A stretch of DNA of 64,000 nt from the IMG/VR virus record IMGVR_UViG_3300027608_000020. The stretch is one strand, 5' to 3'. Within the stretch, counting starts at the first letter, position 1; every line of letters starts with the position of its first letter. A program made the translations under genes and the position numbers. This stretch comes from a virus (taxonomy: Duplodnaviria; Heunggongvirae; Uroviricota; Caudoviricetes). Below the pieces are notes generated by a model. That model saw only the letters and a program-made list of their open reading frames with translations, did no database searches and had not been told where the DNA came from. Shown here piece after piece: positions 7,102 through 64,000 of this stretch.

Positions 7102-7193
7102 GCCAGCGAGACTTGGAAGTCAGAGAGGTCTTATAAGCCTTTTAGCGCCAGATTAGCGTTCTTGAGAGGGTTCGATCCCCTCCGCTGGTACCA
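7102..7193 (+). tRNA. unusual 92-nt tRNA-like gene (anticodon TAT? plus a second 5-bp/7-nt-loop hairpin in the variable-arm position)
   Basis: perfect acceptor gccagcg/cgctggt, A73-CCA, T-arm gaggg-ttcgatc-ccctc; internal hairpins gaggt-ctTATaa-gcctt and agcgc-cagatta-gcgtt; short D hairpin gact-tgga-agtc. Confidence 0.45.
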
Positions 7194-9071: not shown

Positions 9072-9311
9072 ATGGCACGTATTACAAGTCAGTTAGCAGT
9101 TGAACAAATTGGTAATAGATACGATCTAGTATTAGTTGCATCTATTCGTGCCCGGGAATTAACACGGGGACACATGCCTTTGGTAAGTAAGAAAGGTGGG
9201 CCAATTGTTACAGCCCTACGAGAAATTGAAGAAGGAAAAATCGGAAAAGATTATTTGTTAAAACTCAAAAAAGACGCAAGTAAAAATTATCGCGGGTTAG
9301 AGAAACGGTAA
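9072..9311 (+). CDS. rpoZ: DNA-directed RNA polymerase omega subunit homologue
   Basis: ARITSQLAVEQIGNRYDLVLVASIRARE...TALREIEEGKI aligns with bacterial RpoZ ([28 protein letters not shown]...IALREIEEGLI); last 21 nt overlap the fMet tRNA. Confidence 0.7.
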   Translation: MARITSQLAVEQIGNRYDLVLVASIRARELTRGHMPLVSKKGGPIVTALREIEEGKIGKDYLLKLKKDASKNYRGLEKR

Positions 9312-10549: not shown

Positions 10550-10616
10550 CTCAGCTTGGTAGAGCTCTGCGTTTGGGACGCAGTGGTCGCATGTTCGAAT
10601 CGTGTCACACCGACCA
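10540..10616 (+). tRNA. tRNA-Pro(TGG)
   Basis: CGGTGTGTAGCTCAGCTTGGTAGAGC...ctgcg-ttTGGga-cgcag... near-identical layout to E. coli tRNA-Pro(UGG); CCA. Confidence 0.8.
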
Positions 10617-10635
10617 TATTAATAAAGGAAATAAA

Positions 10636-10908
10636 ATGAGTCAAGTTAGAGCAAGTCATATTTTAGTGCCCACATTGGCAGAGGCAGTAGATTTAAAAGA
10701 GAAAATCTCTGCTGGGGAAGATTTTGCGGCAGTGGCCCGTAGTTTTAGTAAGTGCCCAAGCGGACAGAACGGTGGCGATCTAGGACAGTTTAGTACAGGT
10801 ATGATGGTTAAGCCTTTTGAAGATGCAACCTTTAGCCTGCCAATCGGGCATATTAGCGGACCTGTACAAACACAATTTGGATATCACATCATTCACCGTA
10901 CTGGTTAA
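10636..10908 (+). CDS. PpiC/parvulin-type peptidyl-prolyl cis-trans isomerase
   Basis: ASHILV...GGDLGQF...MVKPFEDA...GPVQTQFGYHII parvulin signature; AAGGAA RBS; ORF-track 5' extension overlaps the tRNA. Confidence 0.7.
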   Translation: MSQVRASHILVPTLAEAVDLKEKISAGEDFAAVARSFSKCPSGQNGGDLGQFSTGMMVKPFEDATFSLPIGHISGPVQTQFGYHIIHRTG

Positions 10909-19025: not shown

Positions 19026-19379
19026 ATGTCAGACTATCAGTTGGTCTGTTCTTTGATTAAAACTCAAGAACAAGTTGTTTACGATTACACCAAAAATAAA
19101 TGCAGTCTTATATTCACTGTATCCGTAATTAAAAACAAAGTTCGGTCTAAAAAAATCTCCACAGCAGTTTTCAAGTATGATAGAGATAACAAATGGTATC
19201 CGCATCACATTGAAGTATATTCCGGTTACAAACGAACGGGTGTTGCCACGGTGATGTACGACATTGTGCAAAGTGAGATTGACGGAGTACTAGTTCCAAG
19301 CGATGAACAAAGCGATGCGGCCCGAGAGTTTTGGCGTAACAGGTTATTGACAACTCCTCTGAATAAATATATACTGTAG
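19026..19379 (+). CDS. hypothetical protein (possible GNAT-like fold)
   Basis: 117 aa; RTGVATVMYD resembles the GNAT motif A region (weak). Confidence 0.4.
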   Translation: MSDYQLVCSLIKTQEQVVYDYTKNKCSLIFTVSVIKNKVRSKKISTAVFKYDRDNKWYPHHIEVYSGYKRTGVATVMYDIVQSEIDGVLVPSDEQSDAAREFWRNRLLTTPLNKYIL

Positions 19380-19394
19380 GTTATTGCTGTATGA

Positions 19395-19446
19395 AGCAAA
19401 GAGAAAAGTGTTCTGGACGGGGGTGCGAATCCCCCCATCTCCACCA
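19395..19446 (+). ncRNA. ssrA: tmRNA (ssrA) acceptor piece of a permuted two-piece tmRNA gene; 5' boundary uncertain
   Basis: tGGACgggggTGCGAATcccccCATCTCCACCA matches the canonical tmRNA 3' end (GGAC, T-arm, acceptor 3' strand, A73, CCA). Confidence 0.7.
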
Positions 19447-19516
19447 TAAGCATACTAGGTCGTTGAGTTAAAAAGTCGCATGTGATGCGCTCAGACTAAA
19501 ATAGTATGCTTTTGAT

Positions 19517-19722
19517 GGGGATGCATAGTTTCGACAGGGCAACAAGTAAATGAGTGGACAGCTCGGGAAAGCAGAACCCGTAGGATTGGGGTAACTCGGT
19601 CGTAGAAGCACAACACGTAAACGCAAACGACGAACAGTTCGCATTGGCCGCCTAACAGCCGCCTAGGGTAGGAAATACCTCGTAACAGAAACCACCAAGC
19701 CCACTTCGGTGGGCTTTTTTTT
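19517..19722 (+). ncRNA. ssrA: tmRNA coding piece (5' acceptor strand GGGGATG with G3.U70; tag ORF GCAAACGACGAACAGTTCGCATTGGCCGCCTAA = (A)ANDEQFALAA*)
   Basis: GGGGATGCATAGTTTCGACAGGG parallels E. coli GGGGCTGATTCTGGATTCGACGGG; tag 19623..19655 ends in ALAA and stops at UAA; ends at terminator 19697-19722. Confidence 0.7.
19697..19722 (+). terminator. rho-independent terminator (aagcccac-ttcg-gtgggctt plus T8)
   Basis: GC hairpin followed by a T-run. Confidence 0.7.
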
Positions 19723-19754
19723 GACTAAATAGCAGATAACAAGGATAAAATATC

Positions 19755-33924: not shown

Positions 33925-34318
33925 GCCATTACGTGATGACCTAATGGTACAGCAACAGATAGCCAATAGTTGGGAACATATGGTGGGTGTTATCATGTTG
34001 AACCAAACTGGTCGCAAACCTGTGAAACTGACCTTACCGGAATTCCTCTACTGGTTTCCCACACCACACGCATTGATTGCGGCAGATGAAGAATTTGTTA
34101 AAAGCATTATCAAACCCCTGGGTATGAACAATATTAGATATAAGCGATTGGTAGGTATGAGTTGCGACTACCTAACATGGGATGGAAATAATGCTACCGA
34201 TCTATACGGAATTGGTAAGTATGGTAGTGATAGTTATGAGATTTTCTTTAAGCAGAACTATTCAGTAACTCCAACAGATAAAGAATTAATAAGATATTTA
34301 AAAAAGGAAATAGTATGA
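33911..34318 (+). CDS. hypothetical protein
   Basis: 135 aa. Confidence 0.45.
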
Positions 34319-34905
34319 ATTTAATCCCAATGGTCATTGAAAAGACCAGTACAGGCGAACGTGCCTTTGATATTTACAGTCGGTTACTTAATGAGCGTAT
34401 TATCTTCTTAAATGGCCCAGTAGGCGATGAGAGTGCGGCTACTATTGTTGCACAATTTTTGCATTTAGAGAGTGCCGATTGCGACAAAGATATTCACTTT
34501 TATATCAATAGCCCGGGTGGTGTAGTAACATCTGGCATGGCAATCTACGATGTAATGCAGTTTGTTAAACCCAATGTATGTACCTATGTTATGGGACAAG
34601 CCTGTAGCATGGGAAGTTTACTTGCCACTTCTGGTGCTCCTGGTAAACGCTATATGCTACCAAACGCTCGTCATATGATTCACCAACCTAGTGGCGGTGC
34701 CGGTGGACAGGCTACTGACATGGAAATTCAAGTTGCTGAAATTGTAAAGATGAAAAAGACCCTCACTCAGATCTATGTGGATCATAACAGCAAGGGCAAG
34801 ACATATGATCAGTTAATTATGGACATGGAAAGGGATAAATTCATGAGCGCCTCGGAGGCCCTTGAATATGGACTTATTGATCAAATTGTTAAAAAACGCA
34901 ATTAA
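34315..34905 (+). CDS. clpP: ATP-dependent Clp protease proteolytic subunit ClpP
   Basis: FLNGPVGDE...INSPGG...GQACSMGS (catalytic Ser)...HQP (His); 196 aa. Confidence 0.85.
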
Positions 34906-40880: not shown

Positions 40881-40909
40881 TTGACAAGAGAGTTTGAAAC
40901 CTTTATAAT
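40881..40909 (+). promoter_or_regulatory. sigma70-like promoter TTGACA-17-TATAAT (SufC-like gene may be leaderless)
   Basis: exact consensus; the -10 ends 7 nt before ATG 40917. Confidence 0.5.
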
Positions 40910-40916
40910 AAAAACA

Positions 40917-41648
40917 ATGCTAACAATAAAAAACGTGTCTGCGGTAGTTGATACTAAAGACCTACTAAAAAATATATCAATAAACATCAAACAGGGCGAG
41001 ATTCATGCAATCTTGGGCCCTAAACATTCTGGCAAAAGCAGTCTTGCTCATTTAATTGCCGGGCATCCTTCAATAATTCAAACTGAGGGATCGATTACTT
41101 TTAAACATAAAAACATAACTAGATTAGATTGTGAGGATAGGGCAAAGTTAGGTATACACACAACTTTTCAAAATCCTCCAGAAATCTACGGGCTTAGAAA
41201 CATAGACCTAATTAAAGCTATGATGAAAGCCAAGAAAGATACTCGTTCCGAAAACGAATTAGAAAAAGATTATAAGGTATTGTGTACTATGCTCGAATTA
41301 CCATCAGGGCATGGGGATGCGATGATGGATTACGATTTTATGAATCTATCAGAATTTAAGAAAAACGAAATTCTTCAGATGTTGATGTTAGATCCAGATT
41401 TTGTCATTATAGATGAAATAGATTCTAATTTAGAGGAAGAAGACCTACAGATATTAGGCGCCGTTTTAAACAGCTATGTAGATGGTAAAAAATCAATGGC
41501 CGTAATTACAAATAATCAACAATTTTTAGACATGATTGTTCCTACCCATGTGCATGTTATTGTAGACGGGGAAATTAAAGAACATGGTGGTCCAGAATTA
41601 TATAAAAGGATAATAGAAGATGGCTATTCACAGTTTTCTCAAAGCTGA
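40917..41648 (+). CDS. sufC: SufC-like ABC ATPase with a degenerate signature motif
   Basis: Walker A ILGPKHSGKSS; NLSEFKKNEILQM in place of FSGGEKKRNEILQM; Walker B IIDEIDSNLE; parallels E. coli SufC throughout. Confidence 0.65.
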   Translation: MLTIKNVSAVVDTKDLLKNISINIKQGEIHAILGPKHSGKSSLAHLIAGHPSIIQTEGSITFKHKNITRLDCEDRAKLGIHTTFQNPPEIYGLRNIDLIKAMMKAKKDTRSENELEKDYKVLCTMLELPSGHGDAMMDYDFMNLSEFKKNEILQMLMLDPDFVIIDEIDSNLEEEDLQILGAVLNSYVDGKKSMAVITNNQQFLDMIVPTHVHVIVDGEIKEHGGPELYKRIIEDGYSQFSQS

Positions 41649-42444
41649 AAAAGGCGACCCAGATTGGCAATATTCCCCAGAAAAATATTTTGGTAAAGAG
41701 TTTAAAGTTGTTGAGGCTAGCACCGTTGAGCTTGCAGAAGGTCACAGCAATACTATGGTACTGCGGCAAAATCCTACAGAAAAGGAATTGTTAGCAAAAC
41801 ATATTAAGATTCAAGTTAAGCCCGAGGGTAAGTTGGATTTAATTGTAATTAACGAAGCAGATCATAAACTACAACAGGTATTTTTGTACGATATTCATGT
41901 AGCGGAAGGCGCTGGAATCAATTTTGGAATGTTTGTTAAAAACGGAAAATTCAACAAACACATTATCCAAGTATATTTAGAAGAAGGTGCTGAATTTAAT
42001 TCGTATGGTCTTATGATGAATACCGTGGGCGGCGACACTGAAATTATTACAAAGATTATTCATCAACATATTGATTCTAGTAGTAATCAGATTATTCTTG
42101 GAGTTGCCGGAAAGGACAGTCAAACAGTATTTCAAGGGATGACTGTTCTCGATAAAGGGTCAGAGGGTAGTGAAGCACACATTGAAAGCGGAAACTTTAT
42201 AATAGGAGAAAACGGTAGATGCCGCAGTAGGCCTGACATTTACACCGATTGCAACGAGGTTGTATCTTCCTTAGGTTCCACAACAGATCACTTAAATCTC
42301 GATAAACTTTACTATCTGCAAAGTAAAGGACTTGATATATTAACTGCTACTAAAACTATTTTAGATAGCTTCCAAAATCAAGCAATTAACATTGTACCGT
42401 ACGATGATGTTCGAGAAGAAGTAAAAGAATTGTTTGCTATTTGA
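41620..42444 (+). CDS. sufD: SufD/SufB-family protein (Fe-S cluster assembly scaffold component)
   Basis: C-terminal beta-helix region GNFIIGENGRCRSRPDIYTDCNEVVSSLGSTTDHLNLDKLYYLQSKG. Confidence 0.6.
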   Translation: MAIHSFLKAEKGDPDWQYSPEKYFGKEFKVVEASTVELAEGHSNTMVLRQNPTEKELLAKHIKIQVKPEGKLDLIVINEADHKLQQVFLYDIHVAEGAGINFGMFVKNGKFNKHIIQVYLEEGAEFNSYGLMMNTVGGDTEIITKIIHQHIDSSSNQIILGVAGKDSQTVFQGMTVLDKGSEGSEAHIESGNFIIGENGRCRSRPDIYTDCNEVVSSLGSTTDHLNLDKLYYLQSKGLDILTATKTILDSFQNQAINIVPYDDVREEVKELFAI

Positions 42445-42519: not shown

Positions 42520-45500
42520 ATGTCGTTTAATCCCTCTCATTCATTTTCAGGTAACGGCGTACCTGGTCAATTAACTGTTACATATACAACAGGGTCAACA
42601 TCCTGGAATATTGTTACACAAAGTTTACCAGGGCTTGCTACTTACGGCACCTTTCCTAATACACTAAACGCCAATACTATACAAACCCAAGGATTTAACT
42701 ATGCTTGGCCGTATAGAGGTGGTAAAAATCTGCCAACGTCCGGAACAAACTCTAAGGTACCATATGGTATATTAGGTGTTAGTACTATAGGTGTTGTATT
42801 TTTTAGCCCAAACGCAGGAATTAGCACTGGGGGAAGCAATGGCACAACCTGGACCGTAAACTTTGTTGACGCAGAAATATTTGGCGAAGACTCTAGCAGT
42901 GGAAGCCCAAATATCTCAGGCATATACCATTATGTCGATACAAGATTTATCAATGACGATTCTTGGGGTGCTATTTCTAATAGAACTTCCGGATATGTCG
43001 AATCAGATGGTCATAGCAAAATATTAGGTTGGGCGTTAGACGGATACCCTATCTACGGTCCATACGGATATTCTAATCCAGTAAGTGCTTCTAGTACAGC
43101 AACACTAATGGTTTCGGGTTACAGGACTACATCTAAAGTTAATCGGCCTGCCGCAAGAACACTAGTTGTTAACGGAACAGTAACTTCGGCTACATCATTC
43201 TTAGTTTATAGTGTATCAGGTATAGTGCCGGGAATGTCCATAACCGGCAATTCTATCACAACTGCCACTAAGGTTACAAAAATTATTGGTGCCAATATAT
43301 ATACTAACACTCCCGTGTCAATTGGTACAGGTGAAGTTATTAATGCATCGTTTGATTTAGGAACATTAGTCGAAGATTGGGATTATTTAACAAGCAACAC
43401 CGTTACCCTAGATCTATACAATGGAAGATATTGTGTAACTCCGGACTATCCTTTAGGCACCTATGCATATTTTGCCACACAAGATTCTAACGGTACTCCA
43501 ACCTTTCCATATTTGGTTGGTCCTTATTTTTATGGGGCGTTAACTGCGGATAGCAATAACTCATCTCTATCATCGCTAACTGCAAGTGCTGGGACGTTTT
43601 CCCCTACTTTTAATTCAACTATAACAAATTATCTATTAACGGTAGGTAATCTTACTACTAGTTTAACATTTACTCCTGTTTCGGCAAGTATATATTCTAC
43701 TATCCTGTTTAATACATCAACAACAGTAACATCCGGATCTGCAACACCAGTTGTACAATTACCCGTTGGATACACTACTAGTACCATTAGGGTAACTTCT
43801 CAATACAGAACAACTAGTACATATACTATAAGTATCAACCGAGTAAAAAGTCCCGACAATGCTTTACAAAGTTTATCATTTAATGCAGGCACATTATTTC
43901 CTGCATTTAGAAGCACAGTAACTACCTATTCATTAACTGTTGATACAGCAGTTAGCAAATTAGGAATAACTCCAATAATATCAAACCAATTTGCTTCAAT
44001 TGCCATTAACGGAAATACTGCAACTTCTGGTCTTGTCTATCTTGAAGATCTAGTTTATGGAAGAAATGTTGAAACTATTGTTGTTACTGCACAGGATTTA
44101 ACTACTCGAACTTATACTATTAACGTTTCTAGATTAAGTAATATTTCATTATTATCAGCTCTTTCGATTAGTGTAGGATCGTTTACTGCAAGTTTCAATA
44201 GTAACACATTTTTCTATACAGCATATCTTGCCAATACCATAACCACTGTTAGAGCTAATGCAACTTCGATTGATACCGCTGGAACTATATACATCAACGG
44301 AATATTGGCACAGTCAGGAATATTATCACAACCTATTAATTTAAAATTAGGTGTTAATGCAATTGATGTTAGAATTATTTCTTCAGACCAATCAACCACG
44401 CACTTTTATAGAATAACTATTAATAGAGGATTTAGCAGTACAGCAACATTAAGTTTTCTGTTACTTTCATCAGGTACACTTGCTCCGGCGTTTAGTTCAA
44501 CTATAACAAACTATATTGCTACTGTAACTAACTTCATATCAACTATAAACGTAACTCCTACAGCTTCTCAGGAATATTCGTATGTGGTAGTTAATGATCG
44601 AAATGTACCTCCGGGGCGCACGTCAGAACCTATTAATCTACTAGTTGGTAATAACAATATAGTTATTGCGGTTACCGCACCAGATAATGTTACACAAAAT
44701 ATTTACAATGTGGTTGTTAGAAGGTTGGGCAGTTCTAACTCTCGTCTTTCTAATTTTGTAACAAATGCAATATTAACTCCGCAGTTCCAGTCATTGGTCA
44801 CAAGTTATTCTGCAAATGTTGGTTATACAATATCATCGTTAAAAATTACTCCCACAGTAGAAGAAAGTAACGCCACTGTCACTGTTAATAATATATCTGT
44901 ACTGTCCGGCCAATCAACTGGTTCAATTCCTTTATCTATAGGAACTAACACTATACGAACTGTAGTACTTGCTCAAGATAGTATAACTACTTCTACATAT
45001 AGATTAACTGTTAATCGTTCTGCTAACTACGATAATTCATTATCTGTTGTTGATATAACCTCGGGTATATTGTATCAGAGTCCTACTCTCCAAGAAGGAT
45101 TTGTTCAAGATATAAACACGTATACCAGCTATGCCTCGCACTTTACCACATCAACAGATATATTTGTTGTGGCAAATGACGTAGGAGCTACATTAAAAAT
45201 TAACGGATCAACAGTACTTTCAGGTGCAACTACTACTGTGCCACTTATAGGTTATAACTACGTTAACTCTCTCACAAATAAAATTGAATGGGTTGGTAAT
45301 AACACTATCAGTATTGTCTGTACTGCGGCTGACCCGTCCTATGTTAATACAACAACATTATATATTACCAGGGTTGGTAGCAATATTTCAACTCTTACTA
45401 ATTTAATATTAAATGTAGGTACATTAGACCCTGCATTTAGTTTTAATATTAATGATTATTTTATTGGCCTTCCATATAATTTCACAACTCCATTCCAATT

Positions 45501-48351
45501 TAAACCTTTTGTAACAGATCCAACTTCAACCGTGTCAGTTAACAATGTTGGAGTAGCGTCCGGTACTTTCTCTGATCCTATTACAATACCTGTAGGTCTT
45601 ACTCGTATACCAATTGTTGTTAGAGCAAACTCGGGAGATAGTGTTACTACCTATAATGTGTTTATTGGGCGGGCGGCCGAAGGGTTCAGCACTTCTACCA
45701 ATCTAACTAGTATAGAACTAAGCACCGGATCTTATTACCCTGCATTTAATTCAACGGTAACTGTTTACAATTCTAATTTTACATACGATGTTTCTTCTAT
45801 AAAGATTAAACCGTTCAAATCGTCTACACGGGCAACTATCAAAGTTAATGGTGTGAGCGTTACATCGGGCGAATTTTCACAAGATATTCCTGTAGTAGTG
45901 GGCAATTCAACTGCTACTATTACAATAACCGCAGAAGATTTAATTACTAAACAAAGTTATTATATAAATCTTTCAAAGACAGGTAGCGCAAATTCGTATC
46001 TAAAAAACATCCATGTAAATTCAGGATTTTTAGAACCGTCATTTAACAAAGATATAACACAATATGTTGTAAACATTCCGAGCTCAGTAAGTACTGTTGC
46101 TATTAAATCGTTTGTTGATAATATTCAGGCTCAAGTTAGCATCGATACATTAGGTATAGTTCCGGAAAATTGGTCATTTCCTATCACTGTTCAAACAGGA
46201 AGCAATATTGTAAAAGTAGTTGTGCTTGCAGGTGACCTAATTTCAAGAACAATTTATCAAATTAACTTTATTAAAGGTAGTGAACAATTTACTGCACCGA
46301 TTGTTGCTCCACAACAACCACTTCCAACTCCTGTATGGACCACACCTCCTGGGTTTATCTATACTGCCACTGAATTAGTTTATTCTAGCAGAACTATTAA
46401 TGCATCAGGAGATAATATAGCTTACCGACTAATTTCTGGATCATTACCTAGTGGTATGTCATTGACTACGTCGTCGGGAAACATTGCCGGAATTCCAACA
46501 TCTGTATATCAAACTACAAATTCAACATTTGTTATTCGAGCACAAAATACCCATGGTGTAGCTGACCGAAAATTCTATATCGACGTTAATGGCCCAACAG
46601 CGCCAGTTATAACAACACCGGGACCAAAACCTACAATTGGGCCGAGTGGGGAACGCTTTCTAATCAATGGACAGTTTGTTAATTTCCAATTTACAGCAAC
46701 ATACGATGTATTGGCTCCAAATAAACCAATTGTGTTTTATATTGAAGACGGTGAAGGACAATTACCGCCTGGACTAACTCTTAGTCAAACAGGACACTTA
46801 TACGGACAAGTTCAAGATTCTCTTACTTTATTTTATAGGGCCGGTTCCAACGGAACCTATGATGCCGAAGGGTATGATATTAATCCTTACGAACACGAAA
46901 GTCAACAGGCATTTGGTGTAAGTGGACGTTATGTTAATAAAGTATATCAATTCTCCTTAACTGCGGCCAACGGATCTGCTAAGGTTAAAGCACAATATGC
47001 CATAGATGTTAATGATCCAACAACACTAATACCTAACGGAACTTATCCCGTGCCGCCGCAATGGATGACTCCGGCTAATTTGGGATCAGTACGATCAGGA
47101 ACATATCAAGTTATACAATTAGAAACATACGACTGCGATCCTGGTGCAGGAACAATTACCTATGATTGGAATATTGTTAATCAAAATAACTCCAGTATAT
47201 TACCGCCCGGATTAGAATTAAATCCAACAACCGGCGGCATAAGCGGTCGCATACAATATTCTCCTACGTATAGTACAACATACACATTTAAAGTTAGAGT
47301 TTCTAAATATAATATTCTTAAGAACCAAACACAATTTAGAGATAGAACATTTAGTCTAACAATTTTAGGAGCTGTACTGAGCAAAATGACATGGGTCACT
47401 AATGACATTGTCGGTGCAGTATATCCAGGCGAACAATCAGAATTAAGCATAAAATCAGTCCATGAAGATACCTACTTAAAAATCACATACGCATTACAAT
47501 CAGGAACATTACCTCCGGGATTAACATTTACTACAGATGGTGCTATTCAGGGTAAAGTAGTTTACGGAACTTCGGCAGGAACATATACGATTACAGTTAG
47601 AGCAACTGACAGTAATTCATCGAGCCAACTGGTTAAAACATTTAAGATTAATGTTTTGGCATACACTGGATCTCGATATACACAAATATTATTTCAACCA
47701 TTGTTGTCTAGTGCAGTTCGAGACCAATTTAATACATTTATCACTGACCAATATATATTCGATCCTAATTTATTATATAGACCGTACGATCCAGAATTTG
47801 GCGCACAATCTAAAATAGAGTTTGTGTTTGAATACGGAATAGAGCAACTTAATCTAGGTGATTATGTAGCGGCTATGCAAAATTATTTTTCTAGAAGAAA
47901 ACTTTATTTTGGTAAATTAACATCGGCGTTTGCTCTAGATAATACCGGAAATAAAATATACGAAGTTGTGTACGTTAAATTAACCGATAACATGATTAGC
48001 GATTCTGGACAAACTGTTAGCGAATCGGTAGAATATGACAATACTACTTTATATCCAAATAGTATAGATAACATGCGGGGTGCTTTAGAATCAATTGCAG
48101 ATGTAGACGAATATCTATTGCCAAAATTCATGAGAACTGTACAAGATTCTTCGGGCATCCCGTTAGGAAGAATATTATGCATGCCGTTGTGTTATTGTTT
48201 GCCCGGAAATAGCCAGACAATAATTAGAAGAATTGAAGCATATGGCATCGATTTTAAAACAATTAACTTCGATATTGATAGGTTAATTGTATTAAACACC
48301 CTGGACAATTCTGTTGCTAAATATTTGCTATTCCCCAATAGAGAGGTATAA
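42520..48351 (+). CDS. giant fibre/adhesin-like protein (1943 aa) with an N-terminal YHYH-like domain, at least 8 cadherin-like beta-sandwich repeats and He_PIG Ig-like repeats
   Basis: GIYHYV; repeated L..L.(S/N).G.L.P.F.S.(I/V)T.Y modules about 95 aa apart; LPPGL(T/E)(L/F) repeats. Confidence 0.7.
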   Translation: MSFNPSHSFSGNGVPGQLTVTYTTGSTSWNIVTQSLPGLATYGTFPNTLNANTIQTQGFNYAWPYRGGKNLPTSGTNSKVPYGILGVSTIGVVFFSPNAGISTGGSNGTTWTVNFVDAEIFGEDSSSGSPNISGIYHYVDTRFINDDSWGAISNRTSGYVESDGHSKILGWALDGYPIYGPYGYSNPVSASSTATLMVSGYRTTSKVNRPAARTLVVNGTVTSATSFLVYSVSGIVPGMSITGNSITTATKVTKIIGANIYTNTPVSIGTGEVINASFDLGTLVEDWDYLTSNTVTLDLYNGRYCVTPDYPLGTYAYFATQDSNGTPTFPYLVGPYFYGALTADSNNSSLSSLTASAGTFSPTFNSTITNYLLTVGNLTTSLTFTPVSASIYSTILFNTSTTVTSGSATPVVQLPVGYTTSTIRVTSQYRTTSTYTISINRVKSPDNALQSLSFNAGTLFPAFRSTVTTYSLTVDTAVSKLGITPIISNQFASIAINGNTATSGLVYLEDLVYGRNVETIVVTAQDLTTRTYTINVSRLSNISLLSALSISVGSFTASFNSNTFFYTAYLANTITTVRANATSIDTAGTIYINGILAQSGILSQPINLKLGVNAIDVRIISSDQSTTHFYRITINRGFSSTATLSFLLLSSGTLAPAFSSTITNYIATVTNFISTINVTPTASQEYSYVVVNDRNVPPGRTSEPINLLVGNNNIVIAVTAPDNVTQNIYNVVVRRLGSSNSRLSNFVTNAILTPQFQSLVTSYSANVGYTISSLKITPTVEESNATVTVNNISVLSGQSTGSIPLSIGTNTIRTVVLAQDSITTSTYRLTVNRSANYDNSLSVVDITSGILYQSPTLQEGFVQDINTYTSYASHFTTSTDIFVVANDVGATLKINGSTVLSGATTTVPLIGYNYVNSLTNKIEWVGNNTISIVCTAADPSYVNTTTLYITRVGSNISTLTNLILNVGTLDPAFSFNINDYFIGLPYNFTTPFQFKPFVTDPTSTVSVNNVGVASGTFSDPITIPVGLTRIPIVVRANSGDSVTTYNVFIGRAAEGFSTSTNLTSIELSTGSYYPAFNSTVTVYNSNFTYDVSSIKIKPFKSSTRATIKVNGVSVTSGEFSQDIPVVVGNSTATITITAEDLITKQSYYINLSKTGSANSYLKNIHVNSGFLEPSFNKDITQYVVNIPSSVSTVAIKSFVDNIQAQVSIDTLGIVPENWSFPITVQTGSNIVKVVVLAGDLISRTIYQINFIKGSEQFTAPIVAPQQPLPTPVWTTPPGFIYTATELVYSSRTINASGDNIAYRLISGSLPSGMSLTTSSGNIAGIPTSVYQTTNSTFVIRAQNTHGVADRKFYIDVNGPTAPVITTPGPKPTIGPSGERFLINGQFVNFQFTATYDVLAPNKPIVFYIEDGEGQLPPGLTLSQTGHLYGQVQDSLTLFYRAGSNGTYDAEGYDINPYEHESQQAFGVSGRYVNKVYQFSLTAANGSAKVKAQYAIDVNDPTTLIPNGTYPVPPQWMTPANLGSVRSGTYQVIQLETYDCDPGAGTITYDWNIVNQNNSSILPPGLELNPTTGGISGRIQYSPTYSTTYTFKVRVSKYNILKNQTQFRDRTFSLTILGAVLSKMTWVTNDIVGAVYPGEQSELSIKSVHEDTYLKITYALQSGTLPPGLTFTTDGAIQGKVVYGTSAGTYTITVRATDSNSSSQLVKTFKINVLAYTGSRYTQILFQPLLSSAVRDQFNTFITDQYIFDPNLLYRPYDPEFGAQSKIEFVFEYGIEQLNLGDYVAAMQNYFSRRKLYFGKLTSAFALDNTGNKIYEVVYVKLTDNMISDSGQTVSESVEYDNTTLYPNSIDNMRGALESIADVDEYLLPKFMRTVQDSSGIPLGRILCMPLCYCLPGNSQTIIRRIEAYGIDFKTINFDIDRLIVLNTLDNSVAKYLLFPNREV

Positions 48352-50029: not shown

Positions 50030-50326
50030 ATGAAACGAATTTATAAAACAATGCAGGGTAAAGAAATTGACATGGAAGCATTAATGGCCAAACACGAGAC
50101 CATGCCCGCAGTAGGTAATGTACGTGTTAATGCTCGAGGCGATGAACTAGGCCCAGATGGTAAAATTATTAAAACTAGAGAATCTGTTTTGGCAGAATAT
50201 TATGACAATGATCCTAGGACAGTATCCGACGAAGAACTGTCATTAAGTCAAGTAAAAATTAATACCCCTAAACGTCCAACTATAGAACCTGCACAACCTA
50301 AAAGTAAAATTAAGGAAACAAAATGA
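50030..50326 (+). CDS. hypothetical protein
   Basis: 98 aa. Confidence 0.4.
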   Translation: MKRIYKTMQGKEIDMEALMAKHETMPAVGNVRVNARGDELGPDGKIIKTRESVLAEYYDNDPRTVSDEELSLSQVKINTPKRPTIEPAQPKSKIKETK

Positions 50327-50700
50327 CTGTAAAAGGAACTATCAGGCCGTTAGGAAATAAGGTACTTATTTCTGATATGAATTTCGGCATGGATAAAACA
50401 AAAAGCGGTATTTTGTTACAGAGCGATGATGGTAAAAGTTCAGGTATTCATCCTCGCTGGGGGAAAGTGTTTGCTATTGGACCAGATCAAACAGATGTTG
50501 AAGTGGGCCAATGGATTCTTATGGAACACGGTCGTTGGAGTAGAGGACACAAGTACGAGGCCGAAAACGGCGAAATTATAGATATACGATTAGCCGATAA
50601 TAATGCTATACTGTGTGTAAGCGATGAAGCGCCTGACGATGCAATGCGTGTTAAAATTGGCGCCCTTAACTTGAATGTATCCGATGCACAACCAAATTGA
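50323..50700 (+). CDS. GroES-like co-chaperonin (Hsp10 / T4 gp31-type)
   Basis: IRPLGNKVLIS...KSGILL...GKVFAIGPD...VEVGQWILM matches the GroES mobile-loop and roof layout. Confidence 0.6.
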   Translation: MTVKGTIRPLGNKVLISDMNFGMDKTKSGILLQSDDGKSSGIHPRWGKVFAIGPDQTDVEVGQWILMEHGRWSRGHKYEAENGEIIDIRLADNNAILCVSDEAPDDAMRVKIGALNLNVSDAQPN

Positions 50701-61846: not shown

Positions 61847-62713
61847 ATGCTAACAGACCATTACTCAACACTAGGCGTCCAAAAAGACGCTTCATACGAA
61901 GATATAAAAAAAGCCTATCGAAAGTTGGCTGGGCAACATCATCCCGATAAAGGTGGTGATGGCGAAATATTTAAAAATGTGCAAATTGCATACAGTATCT
62001 TAAGCGACCCTACTAGACGTTCAGAATATGATCGAAATCCGCGAGGATCAGATCCCTGGTTTGAAAATCAAAGAGCGCACCAGGCATATAACGGTATGCA
62101 TGTAAATCCAGAAGAAATGTTTGCACATTTTTTTAACCGGCCTCCAGACGTTGATCCATTTTCATTTTTTAGACAACGACCGCAACAGCCTAGAAACTTA
62201 TCAATTAATGTACAGACAAATATTACATTAGAAGAAGCGTTCTATGGTAGAGATTGGTTAGCGGAAGTAACACTACCTAGTGGAAGAAACCAAACTATCA
62301 ATATTAAAATACCAGCAGGTATTCAAGACGGTACCATGTTAAAGGTACAAGGACTAGGTGACGATTCACACCCTCATGTTCCAAGAGGAGACATTCATTT
62401 AACTGTGTCAGTTGCCGCACATAGAGGATTTGTAAGACAAGGCGACGATCTTGTTAAACAAATAAATGTTATGTGTGTCGAGGCAATACTGGGATGCAAA
62501 TTATCAATTGATACAATCGACGGTCGAACATTGGAAGTAACAATTAATCCGGGAACACAGCACGGACAGATACTAAGTGCGGCCGGATATGGTATGCCTA
62601 ATATTAACGACAACAGATTCAGAGGCAGAATGTTGATGCCTATTAATATTGAAATACCCACACAATTAACTCCCGGTCAAGTAGAGTTACTAAGTAAGTT
62701 TCATCAATCATAA
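61847..62713 (+). CDS. DnaJ-family co-chaperone (J domain plus DnaJ C-terminal domains, no zinc finger)
   Basis: J domain with HPD ([10 protein letters not shown]); CTD layout. Confidence 0.8.
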
Positions 62714-62721
62714 ACAATAAT

Positions 62722-63228
62722 ATGTATAAAGTAGTTAAATTCCCCAATGAAATTCTGCGAGAAAGGATGCCTGATTTTGATTTCAGTAATCCTATTGTAG
62801 ATCCAAAAGAGTTAGAAAAAGAAATGATCGAGACTATGATAGCTAATGATGCTATTGGTCTTGCCGCGAATCAAGTCGGTATTAAAACTAGAGTGTTTGT
62901 TATGGGTTCTAAAGAACATCCAGATAATGCTGTAGGAATTTTTAATCCGGTAATCATCGAATCCGGCGGTGATTCAATGGTTGATGATAGTGAAGGTTGT
63001 TTGAGTTTCCCAGGAATATTTGCTAATATAAAACGCCCCAAAGTTATTAAGGCGCAATGGCAAAATAGTTCGGGTGAAACATTAACAACCGAAATAGAAG
63101 GGTACACCGCTAGATGTTTCCTACACGAATTTGATCACCTTGAAGGTATTGTATATCAAGATCGTATTAGTCCCCTAAAATGGGCAATGGCAGTAAAAAA
63201 ATCAACTAAAACTAAAAGGAAATATTGA
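62722..63228 (+). CDS. def: peptide deformylase
   Basis: GLAANQ, EGCLSFPG, HEFDH motifs. Confidence 0.85.
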   Translation: MYKVVKFPNEILRERMPDFDFSNPIVDPKELEKEMIETMIANDAIGLAANQVGIKTRVFVMGSKEHPDNAVGIFNPVIIESGGDSMVDDSEGCLSFPGIFANIKRPKVIKAQWQNSSGETLTTEIEGYTARCFLHEFDHLEGIVYQDRISPLKWAMAVKKSTKTKRKY

Positions 63229-64000
63229 TGTTAGAACCAGATAAAAGTTTAACTGTAATCTTTGAACGAGCTGTAGAATTAGCTACAAAGTATAAACACG
63301 AGTTTCTTACACTAGAACATTTTTTGCATAGTCTATTAGAAGATGAAAAGTTTAAAGAACTTTTAACAAGTTACGGATCCGAAGTTAGTTTACTACAGAA
63401 AGATATCGAAATCTTTCTAAATAAAGAACTAAAAGAAATTATTAATGCAGAATTTGATGATAAACCAAAGAAAACACATTCTATGGAAAGAATGTTGAAT
63501 AGAGCATTTACACAAGTATTGTTTAGCGGACGATCTAAGATTGAACCTATTGATTGTTTCCTTAGCATATTCAGTGAAAAGAAAAGCCATGCATTGTATT
63601 TTATGCGTAAAGCTAAAATTGATAAAGACAAGTTTATTGATTTTCTAAACAAGGAAGGATCTAATACAGATGATATAGATTCCGAAGAAGTTAGTAACAG
63701 ACATTTAGAAAAAATCATTGTGCAATATTGCACAAGTCTAACTGCTAAAGTTAAGGCTAAACAAATAGATCCGGTAATTGGCCGTGAAAAAGAAATTGAA
63801 GAAATTACTCTTGTTCTTGCACGTAGAACCAAGGCTAATGTTATGATGATCGGAGATCCTGGTGTAGGTAAGACTGCTATTGCAGAAGGTCTAGCACGTA
63901 GGATTGAAGAAGGCAACGTTCCTAAGTTTATTAAAGATCATACAGTTTATAGTTTGGATATTAGTGCCATGCTTGCCGGAAGCAAGTATCGTGGAGACTT
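63228..64000 (+). CDS. ClpA/ClpB-family AAA+ chaperone, N-terminal part (3' end outside the window)
   Basis: ATG overlaps the def stop (TGATG); Clp N-domain LTLEHFLHSLL; IDPVIGREKEIEE...GDPGVGKTAIAEGLARRI...GSKYRGD. Confidence 0.75.
   Translation, partial: MLEPDKSLTVIFERAVELATKYKHEFLTLEHFLHSLLEDEKFKELLTSYGSEVSLLQKDIEIFLNKELKEIINAEFDDKPKKTHSMERMLNRAFTQVLFSGRSKIEPIDCFLSIFSEKKSHALYFMRKAKIDKDKFIDFLNKEGSNTDDIDSEEVSNRHLEKIIVQYCTSLTAKVKAKQIDPVIGREKEIEEITLVLARRTKANVMMIGDPGVGKTAIAEGLARRIEEGNVPKFIKDHTVYSLDISAMLAGSKYRGD

Follow-up and report, generated by a model that had tools for sequence, protein, structure and literature searches.

Transfer-messenger RNA (tmRNA), encoded by ssrA, has been reported in 402 of 18,146 phage genomes, in 133 distinct forms of which 53 are two-piece (Buchholz et al. 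2022, PMC9004378), and a tmRNA database of 2025 holds 79 phage sequences (PMC11915505). Passages of the huge-phage survey of Al-Shayeb et al. (2020, PMC7162821) also place tmRNA and SmpB among the translation genes of very large phages. The present locus is a circularly permuted (two-piece) ssrA gene at positions 19,380 to 19,722 of a 64,000-nucleotide (nt) stretch of DNA from a member of the Caudoviricetes (IMG/VR record IMGVR_UViG_3300027608_000020); the term window is used below for this whole stretch. The gene is very probably functional and carried by a jumbo phage, a reading that draws together the integrity of the gene, selection on its structure, selection on its tag peptide, its own transcription signals and the presence of ClpA- and ClpP-type (ClpAP) genes in the same phage. 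An initial annotation, made from the letters of the window, had regarded a permuted tmRNA on a phage as unusual. This was not borne out by the 53 two-piece forms, by the tmRNA of huge phages in the passages mentioned, by GenBank annotations of Menderavirus phages or by the IMG/VR contigs described below; phage two-piece tmRNAs are already known, and the window gene adds another well-formed example.

Among deposited phages, the closest described genes are those of the Stenotrophomonas Menderavirus phages, which were the only tmRNA relatives detectable by BLAST among 50,697 phage genomes. Like the window gene, these (OR797040 ssrA, MZ326868, PV130723) are phage-borne, are called permuted by ARAGORN and match tmRNA_permuted, here with 118.5 bits, and some of the GenBank records already annotate ssrA or tmRNA. 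However, the 77-78% identity to the window covers the acceptor piece only, the Menderavirus tag (VAANDDSYTVRIAA) is longer, and the gene is flanked directly by tRNA genes, whereas the window gene has its own promoter and terminator. The phages also differ, having 160 kb in the case of Menderavirus and being PA5oct-like and jumbo in the case of the window. Lytic marine myophages (Methylophilales phage Melnitz and the pelagimyophages; PMC9004378) likewise carry a complete permuted ssrA, and the roles proposed there are the maintenance of the hijacked translation machinery or the tagging of host proteins for recycling. Those genes are alphaproteobacterial-type and linked to a glutamine riboswitch, whereas the window gene is beta-like.

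The cellular gene with the same layout is the betaproteobacterial two-piece tmRNA (RF01850, Rhodocyclaceae), which shares the acceptor-first order, the tRNA-like domain and the arrangement of the P2 helix, and has tags of the same type (ANDERFALAA, ANDEQFAIAA); the window also passes the RF01850 gathering score. Nevertheless, BLAST likeness to the betaproteobacterial genes is limited to the T arm and acceptor and to the tag, with at most 92 bits compared with 266 for viral relatives, and their spacer has 24-49 nt instead of 70 nt. The functional paradigm for two-piece tmRNA is Caulobacter crescentus (Keiler, Shapiro & Williams 2000, as cited in PMC9004378 and PMC11915505); that gene is alpha-type and cellular, with a different tag and pseudoknot set, and the processing shown there is predicted by analogy for the window. 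The phages of the huge-phage survey resemble the present one in having large genomes, many tRNAs, tmRNA and peptide deformylase, as its passages on these genes relate (PMC7162821). They include phage SmpB, of which none was found in the window, and those passages do not describe a tmRNA paired with complete ClpA and ClpP.

ARAGORN calls a permuted tmRNA (tmRNA*) with the tag ANDEQFALAA at 19354-19746. Two Rfam models also match, namely RF04321 (tmRNA_permuted) with 119.1 bits (E = 1e-22; gathering score 47 bits) at 19385-19655, across the full length of the model (positions 1-213), and RF01850 (beta_tmRNA) with 117.9 bits (E = 3e-35; gathering score 84 bits) at 19333-19719. Given the ARAGORN call and two Rfam scores above their gathering thresholds, the match is far beyond chance. 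The RF01850 model takes in the promoter, P2, the post-P2 hairpin and the 3' hairpins, and its alignment to the window holds several non-standard model pairs and insertions of 58 nt and 29 nt. The Rfam scan of the window at gathering thresholds returned only tmRNA and tRNA matches. The permuted order is seen directly in the position of the CCA end (19446), upstream of both G+1 (19517) and the tag open reading frame (ORF). The initial annotation had named a permuted tmRNA with this very tag, and the tRNA-like 3' end, the 70-nt spacer, GGGGATG at 19517 and the tag ORF are all present where it had located them.

All elements of the gene lie on the plus strand. A sigma-70-type promoter, TTGACA-N17-TATACT (19347-19375), matches the consensus at 11 of 12 positions and would start transcription at about 19381-19383, at the 5' end of P2. 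The acceptor piece, with its CCA encoded, extends from about 19383 to 19446, with a 5' end deduced from where the promoter lies and P2 begins; since its P2 distal strand already begins at 19386 (19386-19390), this piece would need little or no 5' trimming. A purine-rich internal loop separates the P2 distal strand from the P2a strand UGUUCUG (19409-19415), and then follow GAC, the T arm (19419-19435, with GGGGG at 19419-19423, the loop UGCGAAU and CCCCC at 19431-19435), the acceptor 3' strand CAUCUCC (19436-19442), the discriminator A73 (19443) and CCA (19444-19446). The 70-nt spacer (19447-19516), which is predicted to be excised, has a 10-base-pair (bp) closing stem (19448-19457 with 19502-19511) and an inner hairpin (19477-19489), folding with -20.2 kcal/mol (z = -3.2 against shuffled sequences), in agreement with the hairpin noted there beforehand. 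Its last bases, UGAU, stand directly before G+1 at a predicted RNase P site.

The coding piece (19517 to about 19722) opens with the acceptor 5' strand GGGGAUG (19517-19523), which pairs with CAUCUCC over 7 bp. The G3.U70 pair that had been anticipated was found as G19519.U19440, and together with A73 it completes the alanine identity set. The D-loop analogue CAUAGUUUCGA (19524-19534), the P2a strand CAGGGCA (19535-19541) and the P2 distal strand ACAGC (19558-19562) come next. The P2-like segment assigned downstream of the acceptor strand in the initial annotation is therefore correct as to the presence of P2, but UUUCGA is part of the D-loop analogue, and P2 proper starts from C19535. In the window, P2 joins the two pieces by a P2a helix of 7 bp and a distal helix of 5 bp with an unpaired middle, and both the acceptor and P2 helices can thus form between the pieces. 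Two hairpins (19564-19567 with 19577-19580, and 19584-19589 with 19596-19601; overall 19564-19601) occupy the usual position of the first pseudoknot (PK1), and the minimum-energy fold recovers the second of them (19584-19601). The tag ORF, GCA AAC GAC GAA CAG TTC GCA TTG GCC GCC TAA (19623-19655), has GCA as resume codon, encodes ANDEQFALAA, ends at the stop TAA and is immediately preceded by a conserved GUAAAC. It is followed by a short hairpin (19666-19680), which is what is left of stem 1 of the 3' pseudoknot seen in most relatives, and by the intrinsic terminator (19697-19722), which consists of an 8-bp stem (19697-19716) with a UUCG loop and a T8 run after it, lies where it had been marked and is predicted to form the 3' terminus of this piece. 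A further pairing drawn by the minimum-energy fold, between the 3' motif GUAACAGAA (19683-19691) and UUCUG of P2a, was rejected, as relatives with UUCUG (for example L035) have ACCCAAU at that place.

The IMG/VR database was scanned in two spacer ranges with a degenerate pattern describing the tRNA-like domain in permuted order. Spacers of 40-70 nt gave 117 viral contigs and spacers of 71-100 nt at least 119 further ones, so that at least 236 viral contigs have the same architecture; the first scan was limited to 70 nt counted after ACC, a count by which the window spacer has 71 nt and falls outside. ARAGORN calls permuted tmRNAs in 112 cases from the first scan and in 113 among the second-scan matches listed, with tags mostly of the form ANDxx[F/Y]ALAA, and the closest relatives among the matches listed are about 80% identical to the window across the whole gene. 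An exact 46-mer from the coding piece is absent from IMG/VR. Because a megablast of window positions 15-35 kb against the 50,697 phage genomes gave no match, the phage has no close relative deposited among them. The same phage, 99.9% identical to the window, is present in independent ENA and JGI metagenomes, and the tmRNA is 100% identical in two of these contigs. Sequence beyond the window is available on the contigs ERZ27247917 k141_1508007 and JGI 3300000756.

Structural conservation was assessed in a MAFFT alignment of 87 viral sequences. The search pattern had fixed most T-arm and acceptor bases and left P2 and the spacer free, and for that reason invariance in the T arm and acceptor carries no weight. 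The proposed structure is 86% paired in the alignment, compared with 48-50% when the partners are slid by 1-3 columns, and the observed covariation score was reached in none of 500 column shuffles. Changes on both sides of a pair were found at all 6 pairs of the P2 distal helix (93% paired), at 6 of the 7 pairs of P2a (95% paired) and at 9 of the 10 pairs of the spacer closing stem, as well as at 1 of 5 T-arm pairs and 1 of 7 acceptor pairs. G3.U70 is present in 87 of 87 relatives, at positions fixed by the search pattern. The two hairpins after P2 are common to the window and 14 relatives, where they are 86-88% paired with GC-to-AU and CG-to-GC exchanges; most relatives have a single hairpin there.

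The tag itself is also under constraint. The relatives have 51 distinct ten-codon tag ORFs, in which positions 1-3 (AND), 6 (F/Y/W) and 7-10 (ALAA) are conserved and positions 4-5 vary freely, and codon use within the conserved part is diverse (five codons for Leu8, four for Ala9 and three for Ala10). As AND, the aromatic residue and ALAA are kept through many synonymous codon changes, the pattern indicates that selection acts on the tag peptide.

A second kind of covariation concerns the elbow formed by the D and T loops. Among 202 distinct viral copies (loci L003-L324), position 55 of the T loop and the equivalent of G18, which is the base before GUUUCGAC, covary almost perfectly, occurring as U55/G18 in 134, as G55/A18 in 64 and as G55/G18 in 4. 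G55 is thus present in 68 of the 202, including the window (G19425 with A19527, the G55/A18 form), and in none of 80 bacterial copies, all 80 of which have U55/G18. This covariation supports a folded tRNA-like elbow, as judged from the aligned copies, and A18:G55 resembles an exchanged tertiary pair peculiar to the viral clade, a variant that could interest students of tmRNA-SmpB recognition.

As a separate observation on the 3' region, most viral relatives have an H-type pseudoknot past the tag (alignment columns 412-479, corresponding to 19664-19696 in the window). Compensatory changes are numerous in the second stem of this pseudoknot (for example GGUUGGUU with AACCAACC), which is about 81-84% paired. 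In the window this second stem is missing and the terminator hairpin takes its place; L056, L027, L052, L084 and L109 likewise lack or shorten the stem and have a terminator hairpin.

The neighbouring toolkit of proteolysis and folding genes pointed out in the initial annotation (ClpP, a ClpA-like unfoldase, DnaJ, a GroES-like or Cpn10-like protein and peptide deformylase) proved real in profile searches. A bacterial-type ClpP is encoded at 34315-34905 on the plus strand (PF00574, 257 bits; NCBIfam ClpP subfamily, 297 bits with a cut-off of 249) and is the candidate protease for tagged proteins. The N-terminal 256 amino acids (aa) of a ClpA-type unfoldase are encoded at 63230-64000, also on the plus strand, and the window ends within the gene. 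The complete gene on sister contigs (L325:10507-12768) encodes 753 aa with Clp_N, two AAA+ modules and a D2-small domain, without the ClpB-type middle domain; its best NCBIfam match is ClpA with 881 bits, below the equivalog cut-off of 993. A VGF tripeptide, noticed by eye, lies at what we take to be the site of the ClpP-docking IGL loop of Escherichia coli ClpA. The ClpA-type gene directly follows the genes for DnaJ (61847-62713) and peptide deformylase (62722-63228) in one gene string, and the window also encodes the Cpn10-like protein (50323-50700) and a PpiC-type peptidyl-prolyl isomerase (10573-10908).

On this basis, it is proposed here that the host sigma-70 RNA polymerase would transcribe the gene as a single precursor of about 340 nt, starting from the promoter (19347-19375) and stopping at the terminator (19697-19722). 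By analogy with the two-piece tmRNA of Caulobacter, GGGGAUG (19517-19523) would pair with CAUCUCC (19436-19442) in the folded precursor, with the spacer forming a leader-trailer hairpin. RNase P would then cut past the conserved UGAU leader and 3' trimming would halt at the encoded CCA, so that the spacer is excised and two RNAs are left, an acceptor RNA (about 64 nt) and a coding RNA (about 205 nt), joined by the acceptor stem and P2. The covarying spacer stem, the UGAU leader and the encoded CCA lend such processing indirect support. With G3.U70 and A73 present, the RNA would be charged with alanine by the host alanyl-tRNA synthetase (AlaRS), and host SmpB and EF-Tu would deliver the complex to ribosomes stalled on broken mRNAs. 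Translation would resume at GCA (19623), adding (A)ANDEQFALAA to the stalled product. The C-terminal ALAA of ssrA tags is recognised by both ClpAP and ClpXP of E. coli, and the tag would correspondingly direct its product to phage ClpAP, host ClpXP or both. The net effect during infection may be ribosome recycling and the clearance of truncated proteins, beside the contributions of 37 tRNAs, the deformylase and the chaperones.

Several points weigh against a working tmRNA. A search for SmpB, by tblastn with an E. coli SmpB query and by Pfam over all ORFs, did not find it in the 64-kb window, in about 5 kb beyond it or next to the viral relatives, and because of this absence function would depend on the host SmpB accepting the phage RNA. 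A purine-rich loop with no standard pairs occupies the middle of P2 (NC marks in the Rfam alignment), and the single-sequence minimum-energy fold of the precursor misses P2, with a z of only -1.9, which is why covariation was used for this helix. The usual PK1 is replaced by the two hairpins, the 3' pseudoknot of most relatives is reduced, and the T loop has G instead of the near-universal U55. Finally, the P2 mismatch in a recombinant strain of the phage (L122, described further below) means either that the distal helix is tolerant or that this copy is impaired.

A first alternative keeps the tmRNA working and assigns its main benefit to counter-defence, against stalls caused by the mRNA or tRNA nucleases of abortive infection, or to sensing of stalling, rather than to housekeeping. 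The position of the gene within a large tRNA array, the abundance of early sigma-70-type promoters in the window and the mention of a sensing role for tmRNA in phage biology in a passage of Al-Shayeb et al. (2020, PMC7162821) are in line with it. However, the sequence offers nothing that separates such a role from general ribosome recycling, and no defence or anti-defence gene was identified next to the tmRNA, the flanking ORFs having no family match; counter-defence as the main benefit is improbable, and it would be compatible with a functional two-piece gene.

A second alternative holds that the RNA is a decoy or inhibitor, occupying host SmpB, AlaRS or stalled ribosomes and so shutting down host trans-translation without tagging anything. 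There is a precedent in mycobacteriophage DS6A, whose tmRNA without a coding sequence inhibits E. coli tmRNA (PMC11915505), and a decoy would fit the lack of an identified phage SmpB and the reduced pseudoknot set. It conflicts, however, with the intact tag ORF, the conservation at the amino-acid level and the conserved GUAAAC resume context, none of which a decoy needs, with the virus-specific features listed in the next paragraph, and with the matching ClpAP protease encoded by the phage, which together make it quite unlikely. Ordinary trans-translation by a functional two-piece tmRNA is the preferred reading.

The relation to bacterial genes bears on the origin of the gene. The same pattern, with spacers of 22-52 nt and one genome per GTDB species, gave 82 bacterial loci, mostly from Rhodocyclaceae (Propionivibrio, Accumulibacter, Dechloromonas, Azonexus) with the tag ANDERFALAA; the remaining loci, whose tags are odd, were unexpected and come from Stenotrophomonas, Herbaspirillum, Variovorax and Duganella. 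A short, unbootstrapped neighbour-joining tree of a 130-nt core places the window among viral sequences, with L012 as its nearest neighbour at 7.7%. The nearest bacterial copy, from Herbaspirillum, is 28% distant, the Rhodocyclaceae cluster apart, and the window does not group with chromosomal genes of Rhodocyclaceae or other betaproteobacteria. CCA is fully encoded in 188 of 202 viral copies and in only 28 of 78 bacterial ones (36%). UGAU precedes G+1 in 158 of 202 viral copies and is absent from the six leaders most frequent in bacteria, which account for 64 of 78 copies, and the median spacer is about 70 nt in viruses and 32 nt in bacteria. Because the core tree places the window with viral sequences, the gene can be filed as belonging to a beta-like, virus-borne clade and not to a cellular lineage. 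That it is instead a captured host ssrA or an attP-type integration remnant, serving the phage in no way of its own, is scarcely credible: tmRNA genes are indeed frequent integration targets that leave fragments in prophages (PMC9004378; PMC12595487), but here both pieces, the promoter and the terminator are present, where a degenerate attP-like fragment had been considered beforehand, Pfam shows no integrase in the 64-kb window, the conserved core differs by at least 28% from the nearest bacterial genes as against 8% for viral relatives, the encoded CCA, UGAU leader and spacer length set the viral copies apart, the tag frame is conserved, and compensatory changes within the viral clade show long-term selection. 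The jumbo-phage transduction of islands integrated beside tmRNA that is the subject of PMC12595487 concerns host tmRNA attachment sites and was set aside as not relevant to the phage gene.

The odd bacterial copies are L140, L141, L146 and L148 (Stenotrophomonas), L149, L159 and L161-163 (Herbaspirillum), L151, L176 and L186 (Variovorax), and L133 and L195 (Duganella). Their tags are unusual, such as ANEPQFVAYGT, ANADYYDQDEEVILRVA and ANESFYLKQA. The Stenotrophomonas copies cluster with the Stenotrophomonas phage gene, and ordinary cellular genes lie upstream of L140.

Among the viral relatives, a stand-alone ClpP-family ORF (185-204 aa; Pfam CLP_protease; phrog_1827 'ATP-dependent protease') recurs on the strand of the tmRNA, 60-3000 nt downstream of it. 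It accompanies the tmRNA in 21 of 109 and in 23 of 113 viral loci among the matches listed, for example at L070:1421-2035, L015, L012:3015-3572(-) and L055. The linkage may simply reflect conserved synteny in one phage group.

A wider proposal, speculative and on balance doubtful, is that these genes form a large virus-maintained, beta-like two-piece lineage, mobile between unrelated phage groups and with adaptations of its own (encoded CCA, UGAU, long spacer and A18:G55) and a repeated link to ClpP, in which the phage would supply both the tag and ClpAP as a self-contained tag-and-destroy module, and that cellular and viral beta-type genes would share a history of exchange. The mobility in this proposal rests on members in both Menderavirus-like phages of about 160 kb and a PA5oct-like jumbo phage, and on the junction inside the gene in L122. 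Modestly new here are how large and distinct the viral beta-like clade is, its A18:G55 covariation and the recurrent downstream ClpP-family gene; the natural recombinant may also be worth a specialist's look. The gene lends support to the idea that quality control of translation is among the functions that very large phages encode themselves. Having a promoter and a terminator of its own, sharing its genome with genes for ClpP and a ClpA-type unfoldase, and with more than 200 natural variants, it is a clean test case that could address the role of phage tmRNA (ribosome recycling, amino-acid salvage or counter-defence) and phage ClpAP as a reader of the tag.

The recombinant, L122:188-300 (JGI 3300013372), belongs to a near-identical strain of the same phage, and its DNA differs from the window (19300-19400) upstream of about 19397. 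A tRNA 3' half with the anticodon GCA abuts its acceptor piece and the promoter is absent. In P2 the distal strand reads GAUCGU, which is the form of another tmRNA subfamily, and the partner in the coding piece is still ACAGC, leaving the helix partly mismatched; the junction indicates recombination within the gene.

The promoter of the tmRNA gene is one of a class. A perfect TTGACA with a 17-nt gap and TAnnnT occurs at 14 sites on both strands of the window, compared with 1.3 expected, and 13 of them are on the plus strand (3156, 3250, 9021, 10152, 16213, 18855, 19347, 23459, 27137, 29668, 31546, 37006 and 40881). This class probably marks early promoters of the phage, served by the host RNA polymerase.

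By Pfam, PHROGs and NCBIfam, the window is a fragment of a jumbo phage with nearly all genes on one strand and many host-like genes. Its RFC-like clamp loader is 54% identical to that of the Pseudomonas jumbo phage PA5oct, followed by Atu_ph07, Phosso, SCTP-2, RsoM2USA and XacN1. Other phage-type genes include PhoH, MazG, an Rz1-like spanin, a faint GH19-like match and PHROG matches to virion-structural and tail-fibre proteins; the capsid and terminase genes are not within the window. ARAGORN finds 37 tRNA genes at 4016-29792, on the same (plus) strand as the tmRNA, of which Rfam confirms 32. A tRNA-Tyr is not among the 37, and a 92-nt 'tRNA-Ile (tat)' at 7102-7193, called by ARAGORN only, may be a miscall or carry an insertion.

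The window also has less usual cargo. A 411-aa ORF (749-1984) contains a RuBisCO large-chain catalytic domain (PF00016, 119 bits), and its product is probably a RuBisCO-like protein, which would be unusual in a phage. A small ORF (9072-9311) matches the RNA polymerase omega/Rpb6 family with 55 bits. Two adjacent ORFs (40881-42444) encode an ABC-transporter ATPase, SufC-like by its position, and the SufBD core of Fe-S cluster assembly. Next to them, a protein of 1943 aa (42520-48351) combines a YHYH domain with eight cadherin-like beta-sandwich repeats and with Ig-like domains of the He_PIG type; the ORFs after it show similarity to tail-fibre C-termini, and for this reason it may be a giant adhesin or fibre.

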